The translations under genes were made by a program, and so were the position numbers. A DNA stretch of 64,000 nt from Candidatus Nomurabacteria bacterium (GTDB lineage: Bacteria > Patescibacteriota > Minisyncoccia > Phycocordibacterales > UBA918). The notes beneath the pieces are model-generated. The model ran no database searches, was not told the origin of the DNA, and saw only the letters and a program-made list of their open reading frames with translations. Below, in pieces: positions 3,948-50,675 of this stretch. The stretch is from NCBI GenBank assembly GCA_020632075.1, contig JACKGH010000001.1:387216-451215 (forward strand). Reading direction: 5' to 3'. Position 1 is the stretch's first letter. Every line of letters starts with the position of its first letter.

Positions 3948-3991
3948 TGTCAATGTGCGTATCGATGCATCTATCATAGCATATATGCTAT
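3948..3991 (+). promoter_or_regulatory. putative murA promoter (TTGTCA ... TATCAT) overlapped by 16-bp perfect palindrome ATAGCATATATGCTAT (3976..3991), candidate operator
   Basis: Palindrome read directly; lies between -10-like hexamer and ATG at 4003 of the HTH-MurA fusion gene. Confidence 0.4.
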
Positions 3992-4002
3992 ATTGATTAC
4001 CT

Positions 4003-5627: not shown

Positions 5628-8600
5628 TTATTCAAACTTAATATTCCCCCGCAGCAACAATTCCCCTTGCTGCTTGAACGACCCCTGTGCACGAGTCGCC
5701 GCTTCGGACATGATGATATACACTCGACCTTCATTTGAAGAATCGTCATATCCGTGTGCACCGATAACCAGATCATCAACCCCATCACCCGAAACGTCGC
5801 CAGCTGCGAGAGAAATACCAAAGTTACTATTTGTTGCTTCACCACTGATCTTCACACCGCTGTCGATTGCATCTGAGGTGTGTAAATTATCACCGTAAAA
5901 GAGGTAGACGTCTCCGGTAAAGGTGTCGCTGCGCCACGCACCCACTGCAAGATCGTCAACTCCGTCACGATCAAAGTCGCCAGTTGCAAGTGTTGTACCT
6001 AAGTTATCATCACTACTTGCCTCACCACTTAATATCACATCTGCAGACGATGCAGAGATCGATCCTGAGAGCGTCGCATTGTAGAAAACATACACTCGAC
6101 CACTAAATGAATCATATCGGTATGACCCAACCGCCAGATCGTCTTTGCCGTCGGCATTATAGTCACCCACTGTAAGAGCCCCACCAAAATACGCACTAGT
6201 ACCCACTCCCGTCATAATTACATCTGCCGTTGAAGCGTTTGCAGAACTCATCGAGCCGCCGTAGAAGACATAGGCGCGACCGGTATTGCTGTATACATAC
6301 GCCCCCACCACCAAGTCATCTATACCATCATTATCAAAATCACCTGTAGCCACCCTGTCTCCAAAGTAGTTACTCGTTCCTTCACCAGTGTATGTCACAT
6401 CTGCGCCGGTTGCGTTTTCATCGATCATTGAGCCGCCGTAGAAGACATAGGCGCGACCGGTATTACCACCGTTTGAATAACCATACGCACCAACTACGAG
6501 ATCATCGGTGCCGTCTGCATTGTAGTCACCTGTCGTAAGAGAATGTCCAAAGTAACCAAGTATCCCCTCACCGGTTAGCGTCACATCAGCATCACTCGCG
6601 TCACCGTCAGCTAAGCTGCCGCCATAGAAAATATAGGTGCGACCAGCACCACTTCCATACGAAGTAGCACTAACCACCAAGTCGTCAACTCCATCGTTGT
6701 TAAAGTCACCCTTAGTTAGGGCTGTTCCAAACGCCGTACCACTGTCGCCGGTCAGCGTTACATCTGCACTAGTCGTGGTTGTGGAATGTTTAACACCTCC
6801 ATAGAAGATGTAGGTGCGGCCTTGGTTTGAGTTGTATCCCGCAGCACTTACTGCCAAGTCATTTTTTCCATCATTATTAAAGTCTCCTACAACAACATCC
6901 TTACCGAGATCATCTTCAGACGCAGCACCGGTCACCTGCCAATCATTCGTCGTGTAGAAATACAACCGACCTTGGTTAGAATTATACAAATGTGCGCCTA
7001 TCACCAAATCGTCACCACCGTCGTTATTAATATCCCCTGCAGCCATGTAACGTCCGTAATACCCTGTCTCTCCGTCGAGAGTAACATCAGCACCAGAGGC
7101 GTTTTCAGTAATTATCGAACCACCGTAGAAGATGTAGGCACGGCCTTGGGAAGAGTTGTAGCCAACCGCACCGACTGCAAGATCCTCCATGCCGTCGTGA
7201 TTAAAATCACCCGAAATTAAATCAAGACTAAAACTGTTACTAGTCGCTTCACCGGTCAATGTCACATCAGCACCAGAGGCGTTTTCAGTAATTATCGAAC
7301 CACCGTAGAAGATGTAGGCACGGCCTTGGGAAGAGTTGTAGCCATGTGCACTAACTACCAAGTCATCACTCCCGTCTGAATTGAAATCACCCGAACTAAG
7401 TACAACACCTAGGTAACTATTTCCGGCTTCGCCGGTGATAATCGCATCCGCGCCCGATGCATTTTCAGAGATCATTGCACCACCGTAGAAGATGTAGGCA
7501 CGGCCCTCGTAACTGCCATATGTATTTGCCCCAACCGCGAGATCGTCTTCCCCGTCTGAATTGAAATCGCCAGTTGCTAGAGAGGTTCCAAAATTATTAG
7601 TGGTGGCTTGGCCAGTCAGTGTCACATCAGCACCAGAAGCGTTTTCAGTAATCATCGAACCACCATAGAAGATGTAGGCACGGCCAGTAGCAGAACTGTA
7701 GCTGTTAGCTGAAACGGCCAAGTCCTCTACACCGTCAGCATTAAAATCGCCAACGGCAAGTGCTGACCCAAAACTGTTACTCGCACCTTCACCAGTCAAT
7801 ACAACGTCAGCATCGGTTGCGTTTCCACTAGCTATACCACCTCCATAGAAGATATATGCCCGACCAACTGTACCACCATACAATGTCGCACCCACCACGA
7901 GATCATCTTTGCCATCATTGTTAAGGTCACCTATTTCCAAATTAACTCCAAAGTAGTTGGTAGCAGCTTCCCCCTCGATAATCACATCAGCTCGTCCGGC
8001 TTTGGTTTGATAACTCCCGTCGTTGTAGAAGATATACACTCTCCCAGCATTTGAATTGTAAGAGTAAGCCCCCACCACAAGATCATCCTTACCATCATTG
8101 TTAAGGTCACCGATCGCACTTGCTGCTGCAAAAAGATTTGAGGCACTTTCCCCCGTAATCTTCAGCTCATAGCCCATGATCGGATCAACCCGCAAGCCAT
8201 CAGATAGTGGCGAGCGCTGGATCTCCCAGGCGTAGTCCTCGCGGGTTTCGTAGAAATAGATGCGGCCGGTGTCGCCGCCATTGTTGTAGCCCGGAGCACC
8301 AATCACGAGGTCGTCTTTGCCGTCGGCGTTGAAGTCGCCAGTTATGAACGCGTGACCGAAGTCATCGTTGGTACTGTCTCCGGTGATGATGATGTCGGCG
8401 CTGGCGGCTGCAGTCGGGTACGAGCCGTCGTTGTAGAAGATGTAGGTGCGGCCTTGATAGGTATTGTATTGCCAGGCTCCTACCACGATATCTGTCTGAC
8501 CATCGTGATTGAGATCGCCGGCGGTCAACGCGGTACCAAAACTGCTTAAAGCTTCACCGGTCAAAGTCACATCTGCAGCGCTATCAGTAGTACTTGCCAG

Positions 8601-11600
8601 AATGTTCCCATAGAAAATGTACACTCGACCTTGATTTGAGCTGTAACCCGGGGCACCGATGACGAGGTCATCACGACCGTCGCTATTGAAGTCTCCGATA
8701 GTAAGAGCATTCGCAAAAGCAGATGCTGCGATAGTTCCAGTAAGTATGACATCTGCCAAGCTGTCAGATGAGCTCGCAAGCGAACCTCCGTAAAAAACGT
8801 AGGCACGACCAAGGTTGCTACTATAGCCTGTAGCGCCGACAATCAGATCGTCGATTCCGTCGGAATTAAGATCACCCGTCGCTAAAGAGTAGCCGAACGC
8901 TTCAGCTGTTCCGTCGTTTGTGTATAACACGTCACTGGTGCTTGCATATTCAGACACTAAGTCTCCATAAAACACATACGTCCGACCCTTGGAGCCACCA
9001 TATAAAAACGCACCAACTGCCAAATCATCTTTTCCATCAGCATCATAGTCTCCGACAGCGAGCGAAGAGCCAAAGAAACTCACAGTCGCCTCGCCAGTCA
9101 GAGTTACATCCGCACCTGAAGCGCCTTCTGACACCATAGCTCCACCATAAAATACATATACTTCTCCTGTAAGTGTTGTCTTGATCGACGCACCAACCAC
9201 CAAGTCATCAACTCCGTCACTGTTGAAGTCTCCGACAGCGAGCGCTCCGCCAAAATTACTCGAACTATCTCCTGTTAGAGTAACGTCACTCGTACTCGCC
9301 AAGGTAGTATAGTCTCCATCATTGTAAAAAATGTACACCTTACCTGCGTTGGAATTGTCTAAATATGCACCAACCGCAAGGTCATCTCTACCGTCGTTAT
9401 TAAAATCTCCTGTTGCAAAGGATTTACCAAAGTAGTCGCTCGTTCCCTCGCCGGTGATGTGCTGGTCGAGGTTCACCTGGCCAGATTGAGAGTAGAAGAT
9501 GTAGGTTCGGCCTTGGGAGGAGTTATAGGCATATGCTCCTGCCACCAAGTCTTCCTTGCCATCATGATTGAGATCAGCAACAGCAAGAGCGTTGTATCCA
9601 AAAAAATTCGACGTACTTTCACCGGTTATTATCAGATCTGCAGACGTTGCATTTCCGCTAATTATTGATCCACCGTAAAAAACATAGACTCGTCCTTCAT
9701 TAGTCGTCACATCATACCCAGGAGCACTTACAACGAGGTCATCACTACCATCAGCATTCAAGTCTCCCTGTGCAAGGGTAAAGCCAAACTGTCCATTGGT
9801 TGAAGATTCTCCTGTTAGGGTCACGTCTGCACCAGAAGCGCTTTCGCTCACCATCATACCGCCGTAAAAAATGTACACTGCTCCCTGACTACTACTAACA
9901 GCAATTGCTCCAATAGCAAGATCGTCGGTCCCGTCATTATTTAGGTCTCCTATCGTTACTGAGTTACCAAAAAACATGCTGGAAGCTCCTCCCGAAAGCA
10001 CAACATCCGCCGCGGAGGCACTCGAACTCGACATGCTACCACCATAAAAAACGTAGGCTCTTCCTTGAGTAACACTGTATGCACGAGCAGTCGCTACAAG
10101 ATCATCAATCCCATCGCTGTTCAAGTCTCCGCTTGTGATCGCATAACCAAAGAAATTGTTGCCAGCTTCTCCTGTGTACACTACATCGGCATTTGAAGTA
10201 ACATCAGACGAGACAGGTCCATAGAAAATATATGTGCGACCAGTCCGGCTCGTATATCCATACGCCCCGACCGCGACATCCTTCACCCCATCGCCATTGT
10301 AATCAGCAACTCCTATTGCTGTTCCTGTATTTTCACCTGCGATACTTCCTGTGAGGGTGACATCAGCAGTGTTAGCTGAGCCACTTTCGATCGGTCCTCC
10401 AAACCATATGTACACTCGACCCTCTGTATTTGACACGTCATAGTTATAGGCACCCACCAGGAGATCGTCGGTCCCGTCACCGTTTACATCACCACTCGTT
10501 AAAGAGTAACCAAACAGATCTCCTGCGACTTCGCCAGTAATGATAACCGGAGCATCGGCGGCATACCCCGTGCTTTCACCACCCCAAAAAATGTACACTC
10601 GTCCAATATCTGTAGAACCCCCATCATCGTAGTCATGTGCCCCTACAGCTAGATCTGTCTTCCCGTCGCTATTCCAGTCTCCGATTGCAACCGCCTTACC
10701 ATATTCACTATTAGTCGCTTCCCCCGTAATCACATCCCCTGAGTTACTCACCCCCGGCGCCGTAAACTGCAGCGTCGGATCAAGCGCAATTGGGTAGCCA
10801 AGGAGTGGTACATCAAAGGAGACGGAAAGAACATAGTCACCAGAGGTGTCATTTGGATCGATGGTAGAGGCTTTGGTCACCTGCCACTCATGGGTCTGTT
10901 GGTTGCCTTGAGCATCAATGGTGTATGGAGCCGGGATGATGAGGTCTGGGGCGCGGTTCTCAATATCAGCCAGCATATCAGCAGCAATCGTGCGCTGCGC
11001 TCTCGCCCAAAGGTCTTCTTCGACGCCCGGTTCGGGTGGCGTGTTGGTCGGAAGATAACGGACTTCGACCTCACCACGGTCGTTGGTGGTTAAGTGAGCG
11101 TTTGAGAAGGTGTATGACTGGGTTTCGTGACCAGTGCCGGTTTGGAAGATGGTCCAGTGTTTTAAGTTGCGGTACCCGGCAGCTTGGTCTTTCTGGTAGG
11201 CGTAGTAGGTGTGGAGGCGGTTGTCTTCGCTTGTGTACTTAAGGTATTGCGGCGACACAGCACCGGACACAACTTCGCTCAGGGAGCGCTCCGGGCCGCT
11301 AGGCCAAGTCATACTCCCTTCTCGAAGTGTGTCCGGTACCGTGTCTTCGTTTGTACCCGCTGTCAGTAGCGACGCACGATGTGGCTGGGTGGTGTTGTGT
11401 CGCACCGTGAACTGTCTGTTGCCAGGGAGCGTGATGGTGAGAGGTTCGTTGAGAGAATCTGGGAACTGGAGGGAGAGGGATTCACTAAGATCTGGTGAAG
11501 CAAAGGTAGTACTCGCTTGATTGCCATAGGTGATCTCTACCCCGTCTTTAAGGGTATCGGTGAGGGTACGTTCTTCGGAGAGTGAGACCAGTGGGTACTG

Positions 11601-11768
11601 AGAGAAGTCTTCTTCGACACGCTGTCCGACGAGATCGAATTGAGAGAGGTCGGTGGTGATGTCAGGTGCTTGATTTGGTTTAAAAAATCCAGAGAGATAC
11701 AACACGAAAAACACAACTGCTACTCCAGCCAACACAATTAACGTTCGGTACGTACCTGTACCTGGCAT
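5628..11768 (-). CDS. giant membrane-anchored surface protein with about 28 FG-GAP (integrin-alpha-like) repeats, about 2046 aa
   Basis: ORF track 5628..11810 (TTG); likely ATG start 11768 (MPGTGTYRTLIVLAGVAVVFFVLYL TM anchor); after a roughly 380-aa non-repeat region, repeated about 60-aa units FGxSLAxGDxNxDGxDDLxVGA...GRxYxFYG run to the C-terminus. Confidence 0.8.
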   Translation of the reverse strand: MPGTGTYRTLIVLAGVAVVFFVLYLSGFFKPNQAPDITTDLSQFDLVGQRVEEDFSQYPLVSLSEERTLTDTLKDGVEITYGNQASTTFASPDLSESLSLQFPDSLNEPLTITLPGNRQFTVRHNTTQPHRASLLTAGTNEDTVPDTLREGSMTWPSGPERSLSEVVSGAVSPQYLKYTSEDNRLHTYYAYQKDQAAGYRNLKHWTIFQTGTGHETQSYTFSNAHLTTNDRGEVEVRYLPTNTPPEPGVEEDLWARAQRTIAADMLADIENRAPDLIIPAPYTIDAQGNQQTHEWQVTKASTIDPNDTSGDYVLSVSFDVPLLGYPIALDPTLQFTAPGVSNSGDVITGEATNSEYGKAVAIGDWNSDGKTDLAVGAHDYDDGGSTDIGRVYIFWGGESTGYAADAPVIITGEVAGDLFGYSLTSGDVNGDGTDDLLVGAYNYDVSNTEGRVYIWFGGPIESGSANTADVTLTGSIAGENTGTAIGVADYNGDGVKDVAVGAYGYTSRTGRTYIFYGPVSSDVTSNADVVYTGEAGNNFFGYAITSGDLNSDGIDDLVATARAYSVTQGRAYVFYGGSMSSSSASAADVVLSGGASSMFFGNSVTIGDLNNDGTDDLAIGAIAVSSSQGAVYIFYGGMMVSESASGADVTLTGESSTNGQFGFTLAQGDLNADGSDDLVVSAPGYDVTTNEGRVYVFYGGSIISGNATSADLIITGESTSNFFGYNALAVADLNHDGKEDLVAGAYAYNSSQGRTYIFYSQSGQVNLDQHITGEGTSDYFGKSFATGDFNNDGRDDLAVGAYLDNSNAGKVYIFYNDGDYTTLASTSDVTLTGDSSSNFGGALAVGDFNSDGVDDLVVGASIKTTLTGEVYVFYGGAMVSEGASGADVTLTGEATVSFFGSSLAVGDYDADGKDDLAVGAFLYGGSKGRTYVFYGDLVSEYASTSDVLYTNDGTAEAFGYSLATGDLNSDGIDDLIVGATGYSSNLGRAYVFYGGSLASSSDSLADVILTGTIAASAFANALTIGDFNSDGRDDLVIGAPGYSSNQGRVYIFYGNILASTTDSAADVTLTGEALSSFGTALTAGDLNHDGQTDIVVGAWQYNTYQGRTYIFYNDGSYPTAAASADIIITGDSTNDDFGHAFITGDFNADGKDDLVIGAPGYNNGGDTGRIYFYETREDYAWEIQRSPLSDGLRVDPIMGYELKITGESASNLFAAASAIGDLNNDGKDDLVVGAYSYNSNAGRVYIFYNDGSYQTKAGRADVIIEGEAATNYFGVNLEIGDLNNDGKDDLVVGATLYGGTVGRAYIFYGGGIASGNATDADVVLTGEGASNSFGSALAVGDFNADGVEDLAVSANSYSSATGRAYIFYGGSMITENASGADVTLTGQATTNNFGTSLATGDFNSDGEDDLAVGANTYGSYEGRAYIFYGGAMISENASGADAIITGEAGNSYLGVVLSSGDFNSDGSDDLVVSAHGYNSSQGRAYIFYGGSIITENASGADVTLTGEATSNSFSLDLISGDFNHDGMEDLAVGAVGYNSSQGRAYIFYGGSIITENASGADVTLDGETGYYGRYMAAGDINNDGGDDLVIGAHLYNSNQGRLYFYTTNDWQVTGAASEDDLGKDVVVGDFNNDGKNDLAVSAAGYNSNQGRTYIFYGGVKHSTTTTSADVTLTGDSGTAFGTALTKGDFNNDGVDDLVVSATSYGSGAGRTYIFYGGSLADGDASDADVTLTGEGILGYFGHSLTTGDYNADGTDDLVVGAYGYSNGGNTGRAYVFYGGSMIDENATGADVTYTGEGTSNYFGDRVATGDFDNDGIDDLVVGAYVYSNTGRAYVFYGGSMSSANASTADVIMTGVGTSAYFGGALTVGDYNADGKDDLAVGSYRYDSFSGRVYVFYNATLSGSISASSADVILSGEASSDDNLGTTLATGDFDRDGVDDLAVGAWRSDTFTGDVYLFYGDNLHTSDAIDSGVKISGEATNSNFGISLAAGDVSGDGVDDLVIGAHGYDDSSNEGRVYIIMSEAATRAQGSFKQQGELLLRGNIKFE
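7081..7700. repeat. near-identical 84-nt DNA repeats with 180-bp period inside the FG-GAP gene
   Basis: 7081..7164 and 7261..7344 differ at 1 nt (gtaacatc vs gtcacatc); related copies start at about 7441 and about 7621; correspond to repeated protein segment GRAYIFYGGSIITENASGADVTLTGE. Confidence 0.8.
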
Positions 11769-11848
11769 GACACTAATAATAGCACTGCAACACCTGATCT
11801 TTTTCCACAAGTTAACAGTAAGATAGGGCTTTTGGAGCAGCCCGCTGC

Positions 11849-16076: not shown

Positions 16077-16388
16077 TTAACCCTCACACGAAGTACACGT
16101 TGATCCACCCACATGCACCCGTGGCTTGGCCACGGCAGCTGTCGCGCCAGTATTTGCGTAGTTTTCGCGCAAATACTCGATAATGTCACTAGACTCAAAC
16201 ATCGCGACATCCTTTTCAGTATCGACGAGATACGGCACCTGTGACTTACCGGTTTTAACTTCCAGTTCAGCCAAGGCCGCTTCATCTTCGTCGATATCCT
16301 TCAGTTCTAGTGCCACGTTTAGATTTTCTGCCATTTGCATCACTCGCTGACAGAATGGACACGTTGAACGCATGTAAAGTGTTAGCAT
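16077..16388 (-). CDS. glutaredoxin-like protein (CPFC active site) with Cys-containing C-terminal tail
   Basis: MRSTCPFCQRV...GKSQVPYLVD...SSDIIEYL matches glutaredoxin/NrdH fold; extra CTSCEG at C-terminus. Confidence 0.65.
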   Translation of the reverse strand: MLTLYMRSTCPFCQRVMQMAENLNVALELKDIDEDEAALAELEVKTGKSQVPYLVDTEKDVAMFESSDIIEYLRENYANTGATAAVAKPRVHVGGSTCTSCEG

Positions 16389-16497
16389 GATTTCACTCTT
16401 CGTTATTTTGTAACCTTCCTACAGTATACTACGCAACCGCACCCACTGCCATTCAGCAACTCTGAACACGAAACACTCTCATTCTCTGTCAATGAAC

Positions 16498-16530
16498 TTT
16501 CTTGACATATGAAAAAATCAGCGCAGTATA
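16498..16530 (+). promoter_or_regulatory. putative promoter TTGACA-N17-AGTATA(TA) for lipoprotein gene
   Basis: Consensus -35 hexamer and TATA-rich -10 read directly about 40 nt upstream of SD/ATG at 16569. Confidence 0.4.
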
Positions 16531-16568
16531 TACCACAGGTACAGACAACTACCACTAGGAGGTGTGCC

Positions 16569-16847
16569 ATGTCCCGTTCTTTCGCACGTGCTCGTTTGCT
16601 GGTAGTCGTCCTACTGGCCACGCTATTGAGTAGTTGCGTGCTGTATGTTCCGGGCGTACATGTTCGCAGCCACGTACAACCGTACTACCGATACTACGAA
16701 CCACCTCGAGTCGAAACTCGCACCTACCACTGGGGTCTGCGGTACGATTACAACCGCCCCTCAAACCGCGAGTATCGAGACAACCACCGCAAGTGGCGTC
16801 GCAATCAAGAACGATACAACGACCGCTGGCGGTATCGGTATCGTTAA
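16569..16847 (+). CDS. small Arg/Tyr-rich putative lipoprotein (92 aa)
   Basis: TAGGAGGTG SD 7 nt upstream; signal peptide with lipobox-like LLSSC; mature part extremely R/Y-rich (RYRYR, YYRYYEPPR). Confidence 0.45.
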   Translation: MSRSFARARLLVVVLLATLLSSCVLYVPGVHVRSHVQPYYRYYEPPRVETRTYHWGLRYDYNRPSNREYRDNHRKWRRNQERYNDRWRYRYR

Positions 16848-32822: not shown

Positions 32823-32912
32823 TGTTTGTTTCCTCCACAGAAAACTAGTCAGTTCATTTCGGAAATACCCTACACAAAACAATACGCTATAAATAGCGTA
32901 TTGTCAATAGTG

Positions 32913-33234
32913 CTCCGCCGGTAGGATTCGAACCTACGACCAATCGGTTACATCTTGTCCGAAAATTTCTTAACGGGATGGACTATATCATCATCCTGAT
33001 CTGATAACCGTGGGATGTGAGGGGCTTCGAGCAACTTCCTGCCCTACTTCCTTTCGGAATAGTCTCTGAACCTTCCTTGGATTACTCCTTGGCTTGGCTG
33101 CTGATTGCCCGCGCACGCGCTAGGGGTTCCAGCAATTCACCTCATGTTTCCGTACCTCATTACTGAGGAAGGCTGCTATTTAGAACATTTGTTCAATGTT
33201 ACAGCCGACTGCTCTACCACTGAGCTACGGCGGA
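32913..33234 (-). tRNA. tRNA gene (most consistent with tRNA-Asn, anticodon GUU) interrupted by a 250-nt group I intron; exon 1 33201..33234, exon 2 32913..32950
   Basis: Minus-strand 5' half UCCGCCG-UA-GCUC-AGUGGUA-GAGC-A-GUCGG-CUGU and 3' half UAA-CCGAU-UGGUC-GUAGG-UUCGAAU-CCUAC-CGGCGGA-G fold into a canonical cloverleaf (7-bp acceptor, TΨCGAAU loop, 5-nt variable loop); U1-A72 plus G73 and CUGUUAA loop match bacterial tRNA-Asn. Confidence 0.7.
32951..33200 (-). ncRNA. group I (self-splicing-type) intron in anticodon loop of tRNA, between anticodon positions 35 and 36
   Basis: 5' exon ends in U, intron ends in G; internal guide GCAGCC (intron nt about 24-29) pairs with exon end GGCUGU including the G·U wobble; conserved core elements present: P AAUUGCUGGAA, Q AAUCAGCAGCC, R GUUCAGAGACUA, S AUAUAGUCC. 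Confidence 0.75.
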
Positions 33235-33263
33235 ATATGTAATTGTTACTTGTACAAACAAGT

Positions 33264-33644
33264 ATGGCTATTTTACAGATTTTCAACCAATATACAACCT
33301 CCTCACCAACATGGTATACTACATGTTGTATGCCAAAGAAGGATACTCGAACATATGCAGATCGAGCAGAATATCTCAAGAGAGCCGTCGCTGAACGAAG
33401 ACGTCTTCTGCGTCAAAGAGCGGTTGAGTATGGAGGCGGAAAATGCCAGATCTGTGGATACAAGAAATGCATCAACGCCCTCTCCTTCCACCACAAGGAC
33501 CCTTCGCAGAAAGATTTTGGATTGTCAGCACGTGGTACGACAAGATCATGGGAAAAAATGAAAACTGAAATTGATAAATGCATTCTTGTATGTGCAAACT
33601 GTCACGCAGAAATACACGCCGGAATAACAAAACTACGAAATTAA
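33264..33644 (+). CDS. free-standing HNH endonuclease adjacent to intron-containing tRNA
   Basis: CQICGY...SFHHKDPSQKDFGL...N...CILVCANCHAEIH motif set; ORF track 33243 (TTG); ATG candidates 33264 or 33330. Confidence 0.7.
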   Translation: MAILQIFNQYTTSSPTWYTTCCMPKKDTRTYADRAEYLKRAVAERRRLLRQRAVEYGGGKCQICGYKKCINALSFHHKDPSQKDFGLSARGTTRSWEKMKTEIDKCILVCANCHAEIHAGITKLRN

Positions 33645-47472: not shown

Positions 47473-48867
47473 TTATCCAGTTACCTCTTCTGCAGTCTTC
47501 GGCATGTACTGCTCAATCTGTTCTGGCTTCACACGCTTGAGTGAGGTCTTTGGTAGCATTGTGAGCAACTTCCAACCAATATCAAGTGATTCTTCTACTG
47601 AACGGTTTTCAAATTCTCCCTGGCCCACGAACTCTCGTTCGAAGGCATCAGCAAACTTCAGGTGTGCGCGGTCAGTGTCATCAAGTGACGCTTCACCAAG
47701 CACCACCGCGAGCTCGCGTACTTCACGACCAGTTGCGTATGACGCAAAGAGCTGGTCCTTCAGTGCTGAGTGATCAGCGCGAGTCTTCCCCTCACCGACT
47801 CCGGCAGACCAGAGTCGTGAAAGTGAACCTTGTACGTCAACTGGTGGAAATACACCCTTACGGTAGAGTTCGCGAGACACCACGAACTGCCCCTCGGTAA
47901 TGTAGCCAGTGAGGTCTGGTACCGGGTGAGTCTTGTCGTCGTCTGGCATGGTAAGGATTGGGATCTGCGTGATGGTTCCCTGCTTGCCCTTTACGCGTCC
48001 TGCTCGCTCGTAAATAGTTGAAAGGTCGGTGTAGAGGTAACCTGGGTACCCGCGGCGTCCTGGCACTTCCTTACGAGCTGAAGACACTTCACGAAGTGCC
48101 TCACAGTAGTTGGTAAGGTCAGTGAGGATCACGAGCACGTGCTTACCTTTTTCAAAGGCGAGGTACTCAGCTGTGGTGAGTGCCATACGTGGAGTTGATA
48201 CACGTTCTACCACTGGGTCAGCTGCCGTGTTGATGAAGAGCACTGAACGCTCGAGCGCTCCTGCCTCTTCGAATTCACGACGGAAGTATTCTGCTTCCTC
48301 AAATGACACACCAAGCGTCGCGAAGACAATCGCAAAGTCTGAACCATCCTTCACCGATGCCTGACGCGCGATCTGTGCCGCGAGGCGTGAGTGTGGAAGA
48401 CCAGCACCTGAGAAAATCGGAAGCTTCTGTCCACGCACGAGCGTGTTCATCACATCGATTGATGACACGCCAGTCTGAATGAAGTCGTTCGGGAATTCGC
48501 GTGAGTATGGATTGATCGGCTCACCCGCGATATCTCGACGCTGTTCTGGCACGATCTCTGGGCCACCGTCTGCTACTTCACCAGCACCATTGAACACGCG
48601 ACCAAGCATGTCTTCTGACACGCCGAGCTTGAGTGTTTCACCACGGAAGCGAGCGCGTGTACCTTCAGCTGTCATACCACTGGTTGACGCAAACATCTGT
48701 ACCACTGCCTTATCTTTTGCAATGTCGAGCACTTTACCGAAGCGTGGCGTGCTTTCTCCGGCCACATTAACCTCTACGAGTTCTTCGTACTTCACTCCTT
48801 CTACCCCCTCTACCACCATTAGCGGTCCAGCGATTGAAGAAATGTCTGTGTATTCTTTGTTACTCAT
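47473..48867 (-). CDS. atpB: V/A-type ATP synthase subunit B (regulatory)
   Basis: 464 aa, nucleotide-binding-fold motifs ([15 protein letters not shown] region) typical of B subunit without full P-loop. Confidence 0.9.
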
Positions 48868-48881
48868 GATACTGCTATTAC

Positions 48882-50675
48882 TTAGGCGGTTAGAGCGGCA
48901 ATTTCAGCACGCACGGTTTCCTGGAATTTCTGATAATCCTCCTTCTTCCACTCAAGCTTCTCCTTAAGTCGTGCTACTTCACTGTAGCTTGGGATAGAAG
49001 TGAACGTTGCAAATTCAAACTCTGGCTGCGCCACTACAGACTGACCAGCTTCGAAGATGGTCACGATTGACTTGAGGATACCGTACTGTCGCTCAAGCGG
49101 TGTGTACGCGTCGTCCTTATCGAATGCGTTCTGGAAGAGGAAGTCTTCACGGATCATACGAGCCGTTTCGAGAATGAGTCGGTCACCGTTTGAGAGTGAC
49201 TCCATACCCACGAGACGAACGATCTCGAGAAGCTTTGATTCCTTTTCAAGGAGTGTCATAGCGGTGGCACGCACTGCAGCAAAATCATCTGCGATCTGTT
49301 CTTTCCAGAATCCCTCAAAGTTCTGAGCGTAGAGTGAGTATGAGTTCAACCAGTTGATTGATGGGAAGTGCTTCTTGTATGCTAAGTCAGCGTCGAGTGA
49401 CCAGAAGGTCTTGGTTACACGAAGTGTCGCCTGTGACACAGGCTCTGAAAGGTCTCCACCTGGAGGCGACACCGCACCGATCACGGTCAGTGATCCAACG
49501 CGTCCTTCGCTACCAAGTGTCTTTACAATACCTGCTCGTTCGTAGAATTCAGCAGTCCGTGATGAGAGGTACGCTGGGTATCCTTCTTCACCTGGCATTT
49601 CTTCGAGGCGTCCTGAGATCTCACGCATCGCTTCTGCCCAACGTGAGGTTGAGTCAGCCATGAGCGCTACGTTGTAACCCATGTCGCGGTAGTATTCTGC
49701 AATCGTGATACCAGTATAGACCGACGCTTCACGCGCCGCCACTGGCATGTTTGACGTGTTGGCGATAAGGATCGTTCGCTTCATGAGCGGCTCGCCAGAG
49801 TTTGGGTCAATGAGGTGCGGGAATTCATCGAGCACTTCAGTCATCTCATTTCCACGCTCACCACAACCAATGTACACAATGATCTCCGCGTCACAGAACT
49901 TCGCGATAGACTGCTGGGTCACGGTCTTACCGGCACCGAACGGACCAGGAATACAGCCGGCACCACCCTTGGCGATTGGGAAGAAGGTGTCGATCGAACG
50001 ACCACCAGTACGAAGCGGCTCCGCTGGGAAGATCTTGCTCGTCTTTGGACGCGCGGCACGAATTGGCCAGTATTGAAGCATCGCGATCGATGCTACAGAC
50101 TCATCGGCACGAGTGAGTGTCGCAATCTCTTCGGTTACATTGAAATCACCACTTTGGATAGACGCAACCACGCCGCCTTCTCCTGGTGGCACCATGACCT
50201 TGTGCATGATGAGCGAAGTTTCCTGTACTTCACCAAGCACATCACCTTCTACTACGGTGTCGCCCACTTTTACGACTGGCTTGAAGGTCCACTTCTTTTC
50301 GAGGTCGATTGGCTGTGCTTCGATACCGCGCTTGATGTAACAATCGCCTGACGCAGCCTGAATATCCTTCAGTGGTCGCTGCACACCGTCGTAGATAGAC
50401 TCAAGGAGCCCTGGCGCAAGCGCTGCTGACATCGTGCGGCCAGTGCGATACACCACATCACCTGGGCCGATACCCGCGGTTTCTTCGTACACCTGGATCG
50501 CAGCGACATCGCCGTGAAGCTCGATGATCTCACCGAGTAGTTTTTCTTCTGATACTTTTACCACCTCGTAGAGCTTCGCTTCGCTCATACCATTGGCACG
50601 AACGAGCGGACCGGTTACGCGTAGGATCTCTCCTGCTTTGATATCACCAGTGGTGGTTGTTTCTGTGTTGGTCAT
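48882..50675 (-). CDS. atpA: V/A-type ATP synthase subunit A (catalytic)
   Basis: [10 protein letters not shown]-loop, 597 aa with non-homologous insert region typical of A subunits. Confidence 0.9.

Follow-up and report, generated by a model that had tools for sequence, protein, structure and literature searches.

The 64-kb window analyzed in this study, that is, the whole stretch of 64,000 nt presented above, holds a tRNA-Asn(GUU) gene interrupted by a group I intron and, on the opposite strand near the 5' end of the tRNA, a free-standing gene for a small HNH endonuclease. We read this locus as a self-splicing intron of IA type without an open reading frame (ORF), residing in a working tRNA-Asn gene and accompanied by its own displaced homing endonuclease cassette, which would act in trans. 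Based on sequence comparison, this reading is given a probability of about 0.55. The tRNA gene appears to be a working gene of a Kaiserbacteria-like Patescibacteria genome.

Anatomy of the interrupted tRNA-Asn gene

Exon 1 (33234..33201, minus strand; TCCGCCGTAGCTCAGTGGTAGAGCAGTCGGCTGT) was located by ARAGORN with introns allowed and by blastn of the joined tRNA. It comprises tRNA positions 1-35, namely the 5' strand of the acceptor stem, the D arm, the 5' strand of the anticodon stem, and C32, U33, G34 and U35. Exon 2 (32950..32913, minus strand; TAACCGATTGGTCGTAGGTTCGAATCCTACCGGCGGAG), located by ARAGORN, blastn and reading of the sequence, supplies U36, A37 and A38, the 3' strand of the anticodon stem, the variable loop, the T arm, the 3' strand of the acceptor stem and G73. 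CCA is absent from the encoded 3' end, as read from the sequence. When introns are allowed, ARAGORN calls a tRNA-Asn(GUU) at 32912..33234 on the minus strand with a 250-nt intron, and from the joined exons a well-formed cloverleaf of 73 nt results, with U1-A72 and G73 as the discriminator; in default mode the program reports zero tRNAs across the window. A preliminary description of this DNA, made from the letters alone, had recognized two tRNA halves lying 250 nt apart on the minus strand and had assigned them to tRNA-Asn from the loop CUGUUAA with anticodon GUU and from U1-A72/G73, and both points agree with the ARAGORN cloverleaf. Across the split gene, the acceptor pair 6-67 varies in a compensatory manner among relatives (C-G in the window, G-C in L002, A-T in L004; loci from other sources are referred to by such numbers), and the two halves are thus under joint constraint. 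An intron-less form of the gene would carry …GTCGGCTGTTAACCGAT… at the joined site. No second tRNA-Asn and no second HNH gene were found in the 64-kb window.

Candidate signals for transcription flank the gene. A likely intrinsic terminator (32903..32875, minus strand) consists of an 11-bp hairpin, CAAUACGCUAU/AUAGCGUAUUG, followed by UUUUG; the segment folds with -19.4 kcal/mol in RNAfold, and it was missed by the consensus scanner because its loop is too short for the scanner's rule. The candidate promoter (33297..33270, minus strand) reads TTGTAT, 16 nt, and TG-n-TAAAAT. It scores below the threshold of the promoter scanner and would leave a leader of about 29 nt; the promoter motif CTGTAAAAT or near variants of it occur at the equivalent place in L002, L004, L006 and L162-L166. 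The pre-tRNA leader of loci with this divergent layout (33243-33263 in the window, minus strand) contains a hairpin TACTTG-N4-6-CAAGTA, also present in L162-L165, that is conserved and displays compensatory changes between loci.

Conserved RNA structure of the group I intron

The intron (33200..32951, minus strand) is 250 nt long and carries no ORF. Its parts are a P1 loop in which GAAC-N4-GUUC forms a small hairpin, the helices P2 to P9, the additional P7.1 and P7.2, and a terminal G at 32951. The Rfam model Intron_gpI (RF00028) matches 32959..33210 on the minus strand over its full length (model positions 1-253) with 65.3 bits, compared with a gathering score of 50 bits, and an E-value of 2.6e-14; this is the sole Rfam match in the window. 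The internal guide sequence GCAGCC (33176..33171, minus strand) was read from the sequence and is part of the Rfam alignment as P1. It pairs with the exon end GGCUGU (33206..33201) in P1, where U35 (U33201) stands opposite G33176 as a U·G wobble. With G32951 preceding UAA, the splice site is CUGU/…G/UAA (slashes mark the cuts), between tRNA positions 35 and 36. A boundary shifted by 2 nt, which would yield a tRNA-Thr(UGU) interrupted at 33/34, was considered and rejected. It is a known mis-call in which a U-A pair replaces the U·G and the intron would end in A, and the 35/36 site is the consistent boundary because the shift loses both the U·G and the terminal G. GCAGCY is conserved in all 92 of the related introns examined.

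Covariation was assessed on 20 cores running from the guide to the terminal G, one from the window and 19 related ones from other genomes. RNAalifold recovered P2, P3, P4, P5, P6, P8 and P9, while P7 and P7.1 were added by hand. Standard pairs occupy 92.7% of the cells, as against 32-45% after the 3' partners were slid by 1-3 columns, and none of 500 shuffles reached the observed pairing values. Two-sided, compensatory changes occur at 39 of 55 pairs. Pairing amounts to 84-100% in the helices P3, P4, P6 and P8, where double changes also occur, whereas P7 (GACUA/UAGUC) is invariant across the cores and hence uninformative on covariation in either direction. The E-value of the covariance model together with this covariation excludes a chance resemblance to a group I intron. 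The preliminary description had placed such an intron in the anticodon loop with U/…G/ splice sites, a guide GCAGCC complementary to GGCUGU and four strings for the P, Q, R and S elements; the sites, the guide and all the strings are present, and the P1-P9 fold that it proposed to check is borne out by RNAalifold and pair counts for P2 to P9 and by the sequence and the Rfam alignment for P1.

The 3' strand of P3 is separated from P7 by P7.1 (in the window UUCC-GAAA-GGAA) and P7.2. Compensatory changes occur in each of these two helices, and the Rfam alignment has a 33-nt insertion at this place. P7.1 and P7.2 are the hallmark of subgroup IA, which indicates that the intron is of IA type, an assignment judged from these two helices without subgroup-specific covariance models.

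Introns of this kind are known. Williams (2020; bioRxiv 10.1101/2020.01.27.920355) raised the number of types of intron-bearing tRNA in bacteria from the classical four to 21, among which 'Asn.4Ug' is cited by Nakagawa et al. (mSystems 2026; PMC13011429). In the latter work on 95 complete Patescibacteria genomes, 15 tRNA-Asn(GUU) genes were found with a group I intron at 35/36, 25 of 28 introns at 35/36 were classed as IA, and precise self-splicing in vitro was obtained with one tRNA-Asn and one tRNA-Asp intron at this position. Given these two reports, the intron in the window is another member of a described and validated class, and the novelty of tRNA-Asn as an intron host that the preliminary description implied is out of date. 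By homology with the introns tested, the precursor very probably splices itself. Standard tools miss or mis-call intron-bearing tRNA genes (PMC13011429), and a genome with this copy alone would be scored as lacking tRNA-Asn, distorting completeness estimates of Patescibacteria, a point already made in the literature.

The same evidence bears on whether the locus might be a decaying tRNA pseudogene or hold an inactive intron, with a working tRNA-Asn elsewhere in the genome. Inspection covered 64 kb of that genome and default tRNA finders are silent here, as would be the case for such a remnant. The cloverleaf is perfect, however, with the Asn identity elements GUU and G73, the acceptor stem shows compensatory changes across the split gene in relatives, the Rfam match is full-length with all core helices kept, and a candidate promoter and terminator are both present. 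Moreover, the interrupted tRNA-Asn gene is typically the sole copy in complete Patescibacteria genomes (PMC13011429). We therefore regard a pseudogene or a dead intron as scarcely credible.

The HNH endonuclease gene and its control region

The HNH gene (33330..33644, plus strand) encodes 104 aa and is free-standing and divergent from the tRNA gene, its ATG lying 95 nt away from the 5' end of the tRNA gene and 129 nt from the intron insertion site, in accordance with the divergent nuclease gene noticed near the tRNA in the preliminary description. The protein is 100% identical to KC877_02140 at NCBI, from a metagenome-assembled genome of Candidatus Kaiserbacteria. It matches phrog_2255, 'HNH endonuclease', with an E-value of 4.5e-30, and Pfam HNH (PF01844) marginally, with 22.2 bits against a cut-off of 21.4; there is no NCBIfam match for it. 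An alignment of 34 diverse family members, which share 67-86% identity and are compact (about 104 aa), displays 34 invariant columns, all of which are kept in the window's protein. They include C39, C42, H54, H55, C88, N90, C91, H92 and H96, i.e., two Cys pairs and a His/Asn/His set, and every catalytic and zinc-binding column is conserved. The AlphaFold2 model (pLDDT 88) places strands at 51-55 and 84-88 and a helix at 89-97, and Foldseek gives weak matches to generic HNH domains, the best with an E-value of 0.09.

The control region of the gene (33291..33335, plus strand) contains a promoter-like TATACA-18-TG-n-TATACT at 33291..33320, which the promoter scan lists with its TG extension, and an inverted repeat. 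The repeat, TGGTATA (33312..33318) and TATGCCA (33329..33335), encloses both the -10-like TATACT and the ATG of the gene. In read-through RNA it could make the ATG inaccessible, while RNA that begins within the repeat would be open to translation. Such masking has been reported for intron ORFs of phage T4. Alternatively, the repeat may be a palindrome bound by a protein. The inverted repeat is also seen in L003, L005, L008, L023, L025, L028 and others, in some of them as a TATACCA variant, and in intron-borne as well as free-standing copies. The Kaiserbacteria relative L004 has, at about 3990-4000, ATA in place of the ATG conserved in the family, which represents a non-canonical start or the onset of decay.

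Orthology of the HNH gene with intron-borne copies

One genome for each GTDB species was scanned, and HNH relatives are encoded in at least 592 species-level genomes, the named ones all being Patescibacteria, and 80 loci were fetched. Note that these loci were chosen by HNH similarity, and the proportions given below are not prevalences among introns. In 63 of the 80, ARAGORN with introns allowed shows a split tRNA gene that encloses the HNH ORF, both being encoded by one strand. Four loci lack a tRNA call, and three of these are truncated instances of the same intron-borne arrangement, which raises the total to 66 of 80. After the known 2-nt mis-calls of ARAGORN had been corrected manually, 92 loci from all sets conform to CUGU/…G/UAA in tRNA-Asn at 35/36. 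A scan of metagenomes with the single HNH protein yielded mostly more distant relatives, 51-75% identical.

The ORFs in the P1 loop of tRNA-Asn introns are 60-88% identical to the window's HNH over its full length. In these introns the order within the P1 loop is a GAAC-N4-GTTC hairpin after the splice site, the block TGGTATACT, about 10 nt, and the ATG; the end of the ORF (…ATT ACG CAG CTT CCT…) overlaps the guide GCAGCY and runs into P2. The free-standing copy of the window retains the upstream block as ATGGTATACTACATGTTGT-ATG, and its C-terminal GITKL corresponds by homology to the GITQL for which the guide region codes in intron-borne copies. The ORF-less P1 loop of the window in turn retains the hairpin, as GAAC-AAAU-GUUC. 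Because hairpin, upstream block and C-terminus are shared, the two forms differ by exactly the control block plus the ORF. The window's HNH gene and the intron-borne copies can, with high confidence, be assigned a common ancestry. The connection that the preliminary description had drawn between the free-standing nuclease and the ORF-less intron, together with its proposal to look for homing endonuclease relatives, has thus gained strong support from comparison, since the same family sits inside the P1 loop in most related genomes.

Synteny and purifying selection of free-standing genes

The divergent layout, in which the tRNA is on one strand, the HNH gene lies about 95-145 nt upstream on the other, and the intron is 232-344 nt long and ORF-less, was found in nine loci: the window, L002, L004, L006 and L162-L166. 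L002, L004 and L006 come from species-representative genomes, and L162-L166 are the closest protein relatives, with 77-88% identity. The window's neighbors Fpg, DUF2061 and UDG are common to L002, L004 and L162, and UDG is also present in L006. The nonsynonymous divergence (dN) of the HNH gene is 0.12-0.25, compared with 0.18 for Fpg and 0.19-0.29 for UDG; synonymous divergence (dS) is saturated, and the comparison was made on dN alone. An intact gene with a comparable dN implies that HNH has long been kept by selection at this position. No tRNA or intron remnants were found downstream of the window's HNH gene.

Two of the divergent-type loci, the Logan contigs L162 and L163, end within their first 140 nt exactly at, or 2 nt after, the 5' splice site …GGCTGT/. 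These assembly breaks might reflect intron presence or absence, or an intron-variant polymorphism, in those populations.

Free-standing copies occur in further arrangements. The HNH gene lies downstream on the same strand in L167 and L082, downstream of the tRNA in L023 and L025, and immediately upstream on the same strand in L036, L040, L050, L051 and L065. It stands beside an intron-less tRNA-Asn(GUU) in L016, L020, L074, L091, L095, L114 and many of L099-L157, metagenome contigs included. In a rough neighbor-joining tree of the 104 aa, the free-standing forms are found at several positions among the intron-borne ones, and this tree is too weak to fix the direction between the two states. 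Short duplicated pieces of tRNA-Asn flank the free-standing cassettes in L020 (2270-2290), L025 (4360-4380) and L074 (2240-2300 and 2700-2792), either as a stretch resembling the 5' exon before the cassette or as one resembling the acceptor 3' end (ACCCGCGGAGC) after it. They look like scars of cassette movement or of intron removal.

The synteny and the pace of evolution can also be explained if the intron is a working but immobile ribozyme that is inherited vertically, and the HNH gene a relic retained or domesticated for some other DNA-related role, with no homing today. Under this explanation the conservation of tRNA-Asn, HNH, Fpg and UDG across several loci of the clade is expected, HNH evolves as fast as its housekeeping neighbors (as far as saturated dS permits the comparison), Fpg and UDG are themselves DNA-repair genes, and Nakagawa et al. 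(PMC13011429) have argued that tRNA introns are transferred infrequently. However, the family stays with tRNA-Asn in at least four arrangements and in hundreds of genomes and phages, which fits a nuclease that is selfish and linked to its target rather than a general repair function. The mixing of arrangements in the family tree and the retention by the cassette of its own control region also speak against a relic. We judge this explanation to be rather unlikely and prefer an intron with a displaced homing endonuclease of its own.

Relatives in phage tRNA arrays

Relatives of the HNH protein are encoded on at least 576 viral contigs, with 48-69% identity, mostly over residues 19-102. In 80 viral loci (L168-L247) they lie in tRNA arrays with a total of 514 tRNAs, 13% of which are tRNA-Asn(GUU). 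The first downstream tRNA is an intron-less tRNA-Asn(GUU) in 36 of the 80 loci, typically 0-56 nt off, and the first upstream tRNA is tRNA-Asn in 21. Klebsiella phage Muenster (L248, 303224-303917) has an annotated HNH endonuclease 65 nt after a tRNA-Asn; other cultured phages possess an HNH relative without an adjacent tRNA-Asn. The preference for tRNA-Asn in phages ties the HNH family to tRNA-Asn genes, whether these have an intron or not.

This finding also bears on a role of HNH in folding or splicing of the intron RNA, as a maturase-like protein that for this reason stays beside the tRNA gene. The tight linkage to the intron in most genomes would fit such a role, and so would the best PDB sequence match of the family profile, a weak one (E 0.015) to the endonuclease domain of a group II intron maturase/reverse transcriptase. 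Yet the same family stands beside intron-less tRNA-Asn genes in phages and some bacteria, introns of this class splice in vitro free of protein, and the residues of the nuclease motif are invariant. To our knowledge, no HNH maturase for group I introns has been reported either. A maturase-like role is accordingly considered improbable, far more so than a relic.

A phage origin of the window itself was rejected. Megablast against phages gave just a 40-bp match in the intron core (Vibrio phage ICP1), and the neighboring genes are cellular, among them those for Fpg (formamidopyrimidine-DNA glycosylase), UDG (uracil-DNA glycosylase), an AT3-SGNH acyltransferase, acetyl-CoA synthetase and TrkA/TrkH. 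The matching stretch, at 33035-33075 in the P7 region (GGTTCAGAGACTA…), recurs with 95-97% identity in 82 genomes of Vibrio phages of the ICP1 type, at a site that presumably is the core of a group I intron there.

Taken over all sets, the arrangements may, tentatively, represent one HNH lineage dedicated to tRNA-Asn that exists in the three states of the 'endonuclease invades intron' model. In the first state the gene would be free-standing beside an intron-less tRNA-Asn, as in phage tRNA arrays and some bacteria; in the second, free-standing beside an ORF-less intron, as in the window's clade and other arrangements; and in the third, embedded in the P1 loop of the intron, as in most Patescibacteria.

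Proposed homing in trans

In the mechanism that we propose, transcription would start from the promoter about 35 nt upstream and end at the hairpin terminator. The guide GCAGCC would pair with the exon GGCUGU to form P1, with the U·G at the cleavage site, free guanosine would attack after U35, and the terminal G32951 would then take the place of the guanosine, so that the exons are ligated into the loop CUGUUAA. CCA, not being encoded, would be added after splicing. The HNH cassette (promoter/hairpin and ORF) would be the intron family's own and, in this clade, inherited at a place about 95 nt upstream of the tRNA gene. Its product would cut or nick intron-less tRNA-Asn genes in trans, while the resident gene would be protected since the intron splits the proposed site. 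When the cut is mended with this locus as template, the nuclease gene, at a distance of 129-445 bp, would be carried over along with the intron by 'collaborative' homing. The architecture by which collaborative homing is recognized, an ORF-less intron with a free-standing endonuclease gene nearby, is found here. That the HNH protein takes part in homing in trans at present falls slightly short of an even chance.

Several observations weigh against this mechanism. For an enzyme with sequence specificity, 104 aa is very little, and the phage relatives have an extra N-terminal region; the Pfam score of the protein is marginal and the fold search returned weak matches to HNH domains. The cleavage activity, the target site and the mobility are what we infer from sequence. 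The conservation, of a housekeeping kind, and the stability of the synteny would be expected of a domesticated or simply retained gene no less than of a selfish gene that is still active, and the check for a second, intron-less tRNA-Asn covered the 64-kb window. In addition, the anticodon stem-loops of the intron-less tRNA-Asn genes adjacent to HNH look like ordinary targets, which means that either the nuclease would recognize something other than just the insertion site or self-protection works otherwise. Its actual site may be another part of the tRNA-Asn gene or a sequence next to it.

Should the lineage indeed exist in the three states named above, the window would show collaborative homing alive in the chromosome of a cell. 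The 'ORF-less' tRNA introns of Patescibacteria would then be more mobile than currently thought, because the nuclease can sit next door. The survey of Nakagawa et al. (PMC13011429) found HNH (PF01844) encoded inside four tRNA-Asn introns and most tRNA introns to be without endonuclease genes, from which infrequent transfer was deduced; here, the endonuclease of an 'ORF-less' intron sits just outside the tRNA gene, stable and under selection. The series of arrangements provides natural material for testing how composite mobile elements arise from introns and free-standing nucleases, a question so far studied mainly in phages.

Comparison with known systems

The intron resembles the 35/36 tRNA-Asn introns of Patescibacteria (PMC13011429) in phylum, tRNA, the CUGU/UAA site, the U at -1 and the terminal G, and likewise in its IA-type core with P7.1 and P7.2, its length of about 250 nt and its invisibility to default tRNA finders. 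In those introns the HNH gene is inside or none is reported, whereas in the window the intron is ORF-less and HNH lies upstream of the tRNA gene on the other strand. PMC13011429 makes no mention of endonuclease genes outside introns.

With the collaborative, or trans, homing of phages the locus shares an ORF-less self-splicing intron and an endonuclease gene shortly outside the interrupted gene, a layout that would similarly allow joint copying of the two after a cut in an intron-less allele. The known cases concern protein-coding genes of phages, while the window is part of a cellular chromosome, the interrupted gene encodes a tRNA, and the cleavage site is a predicted one; moreover, in sister lineages the intron itself houses members of the window's nuclease family. 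Like the endonuclease of the tRNA-fMet intron, the HNH protein is a candidate homing endonuclease tied to a bacterial tRNA group I intron. The former targets the anticodon region of the tRNA gene, on which point the likeness of the window's protein is a predicted one. The ORFs of tRNA-fMet introns differ from it in being PD-(D/E)XK proteins (PMC13011429) encoded inside the intron at fMet 33/34. SegB of phage T4, encoded in a tRNA gene cluster, promotes inheritance of the tRNA region (PMC2330249). It shares with our family a location among or next to tRNA genes, as seen in the phage HNH relatives beside tRNA-Asn, but it is a GIY-YIG nuclease without an intron, whereas the window has an HNH gene in a bacterial chromosome beside an intron-containing tRNA gene.

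The intron-bearing tRNA-Asn is therefore real, looks functional and is of a known and recently validated kind, the intron itself is not new, and the locus is an architectural variation on a known system. The literature searched contained nothing relevant on an HNH family tied to tRNA-Asn, and we found no description of an HNH cassette outside the gene in a whole clade, of the abundance of this family in uncultured Patescibacteria, or of its link to tRNA-Asn in phages.

Other features of the window

With introns allowed, ARAGORN also reports a tRNA-Gly(GCC) with a 388-nt intron at 16216..16696 on the minus strand, which was rejected as a false positive owing to its poor cloverleaf and its lack of an Rfam match. 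On the same strand, the regions 47473-50675 and 5628-11810 encode the A and B subunits of an A/V-type ATPase (ATP-synt_VA_C domains) and a 2060-aa protein with about 25 FG-GAP repeats, respectively.

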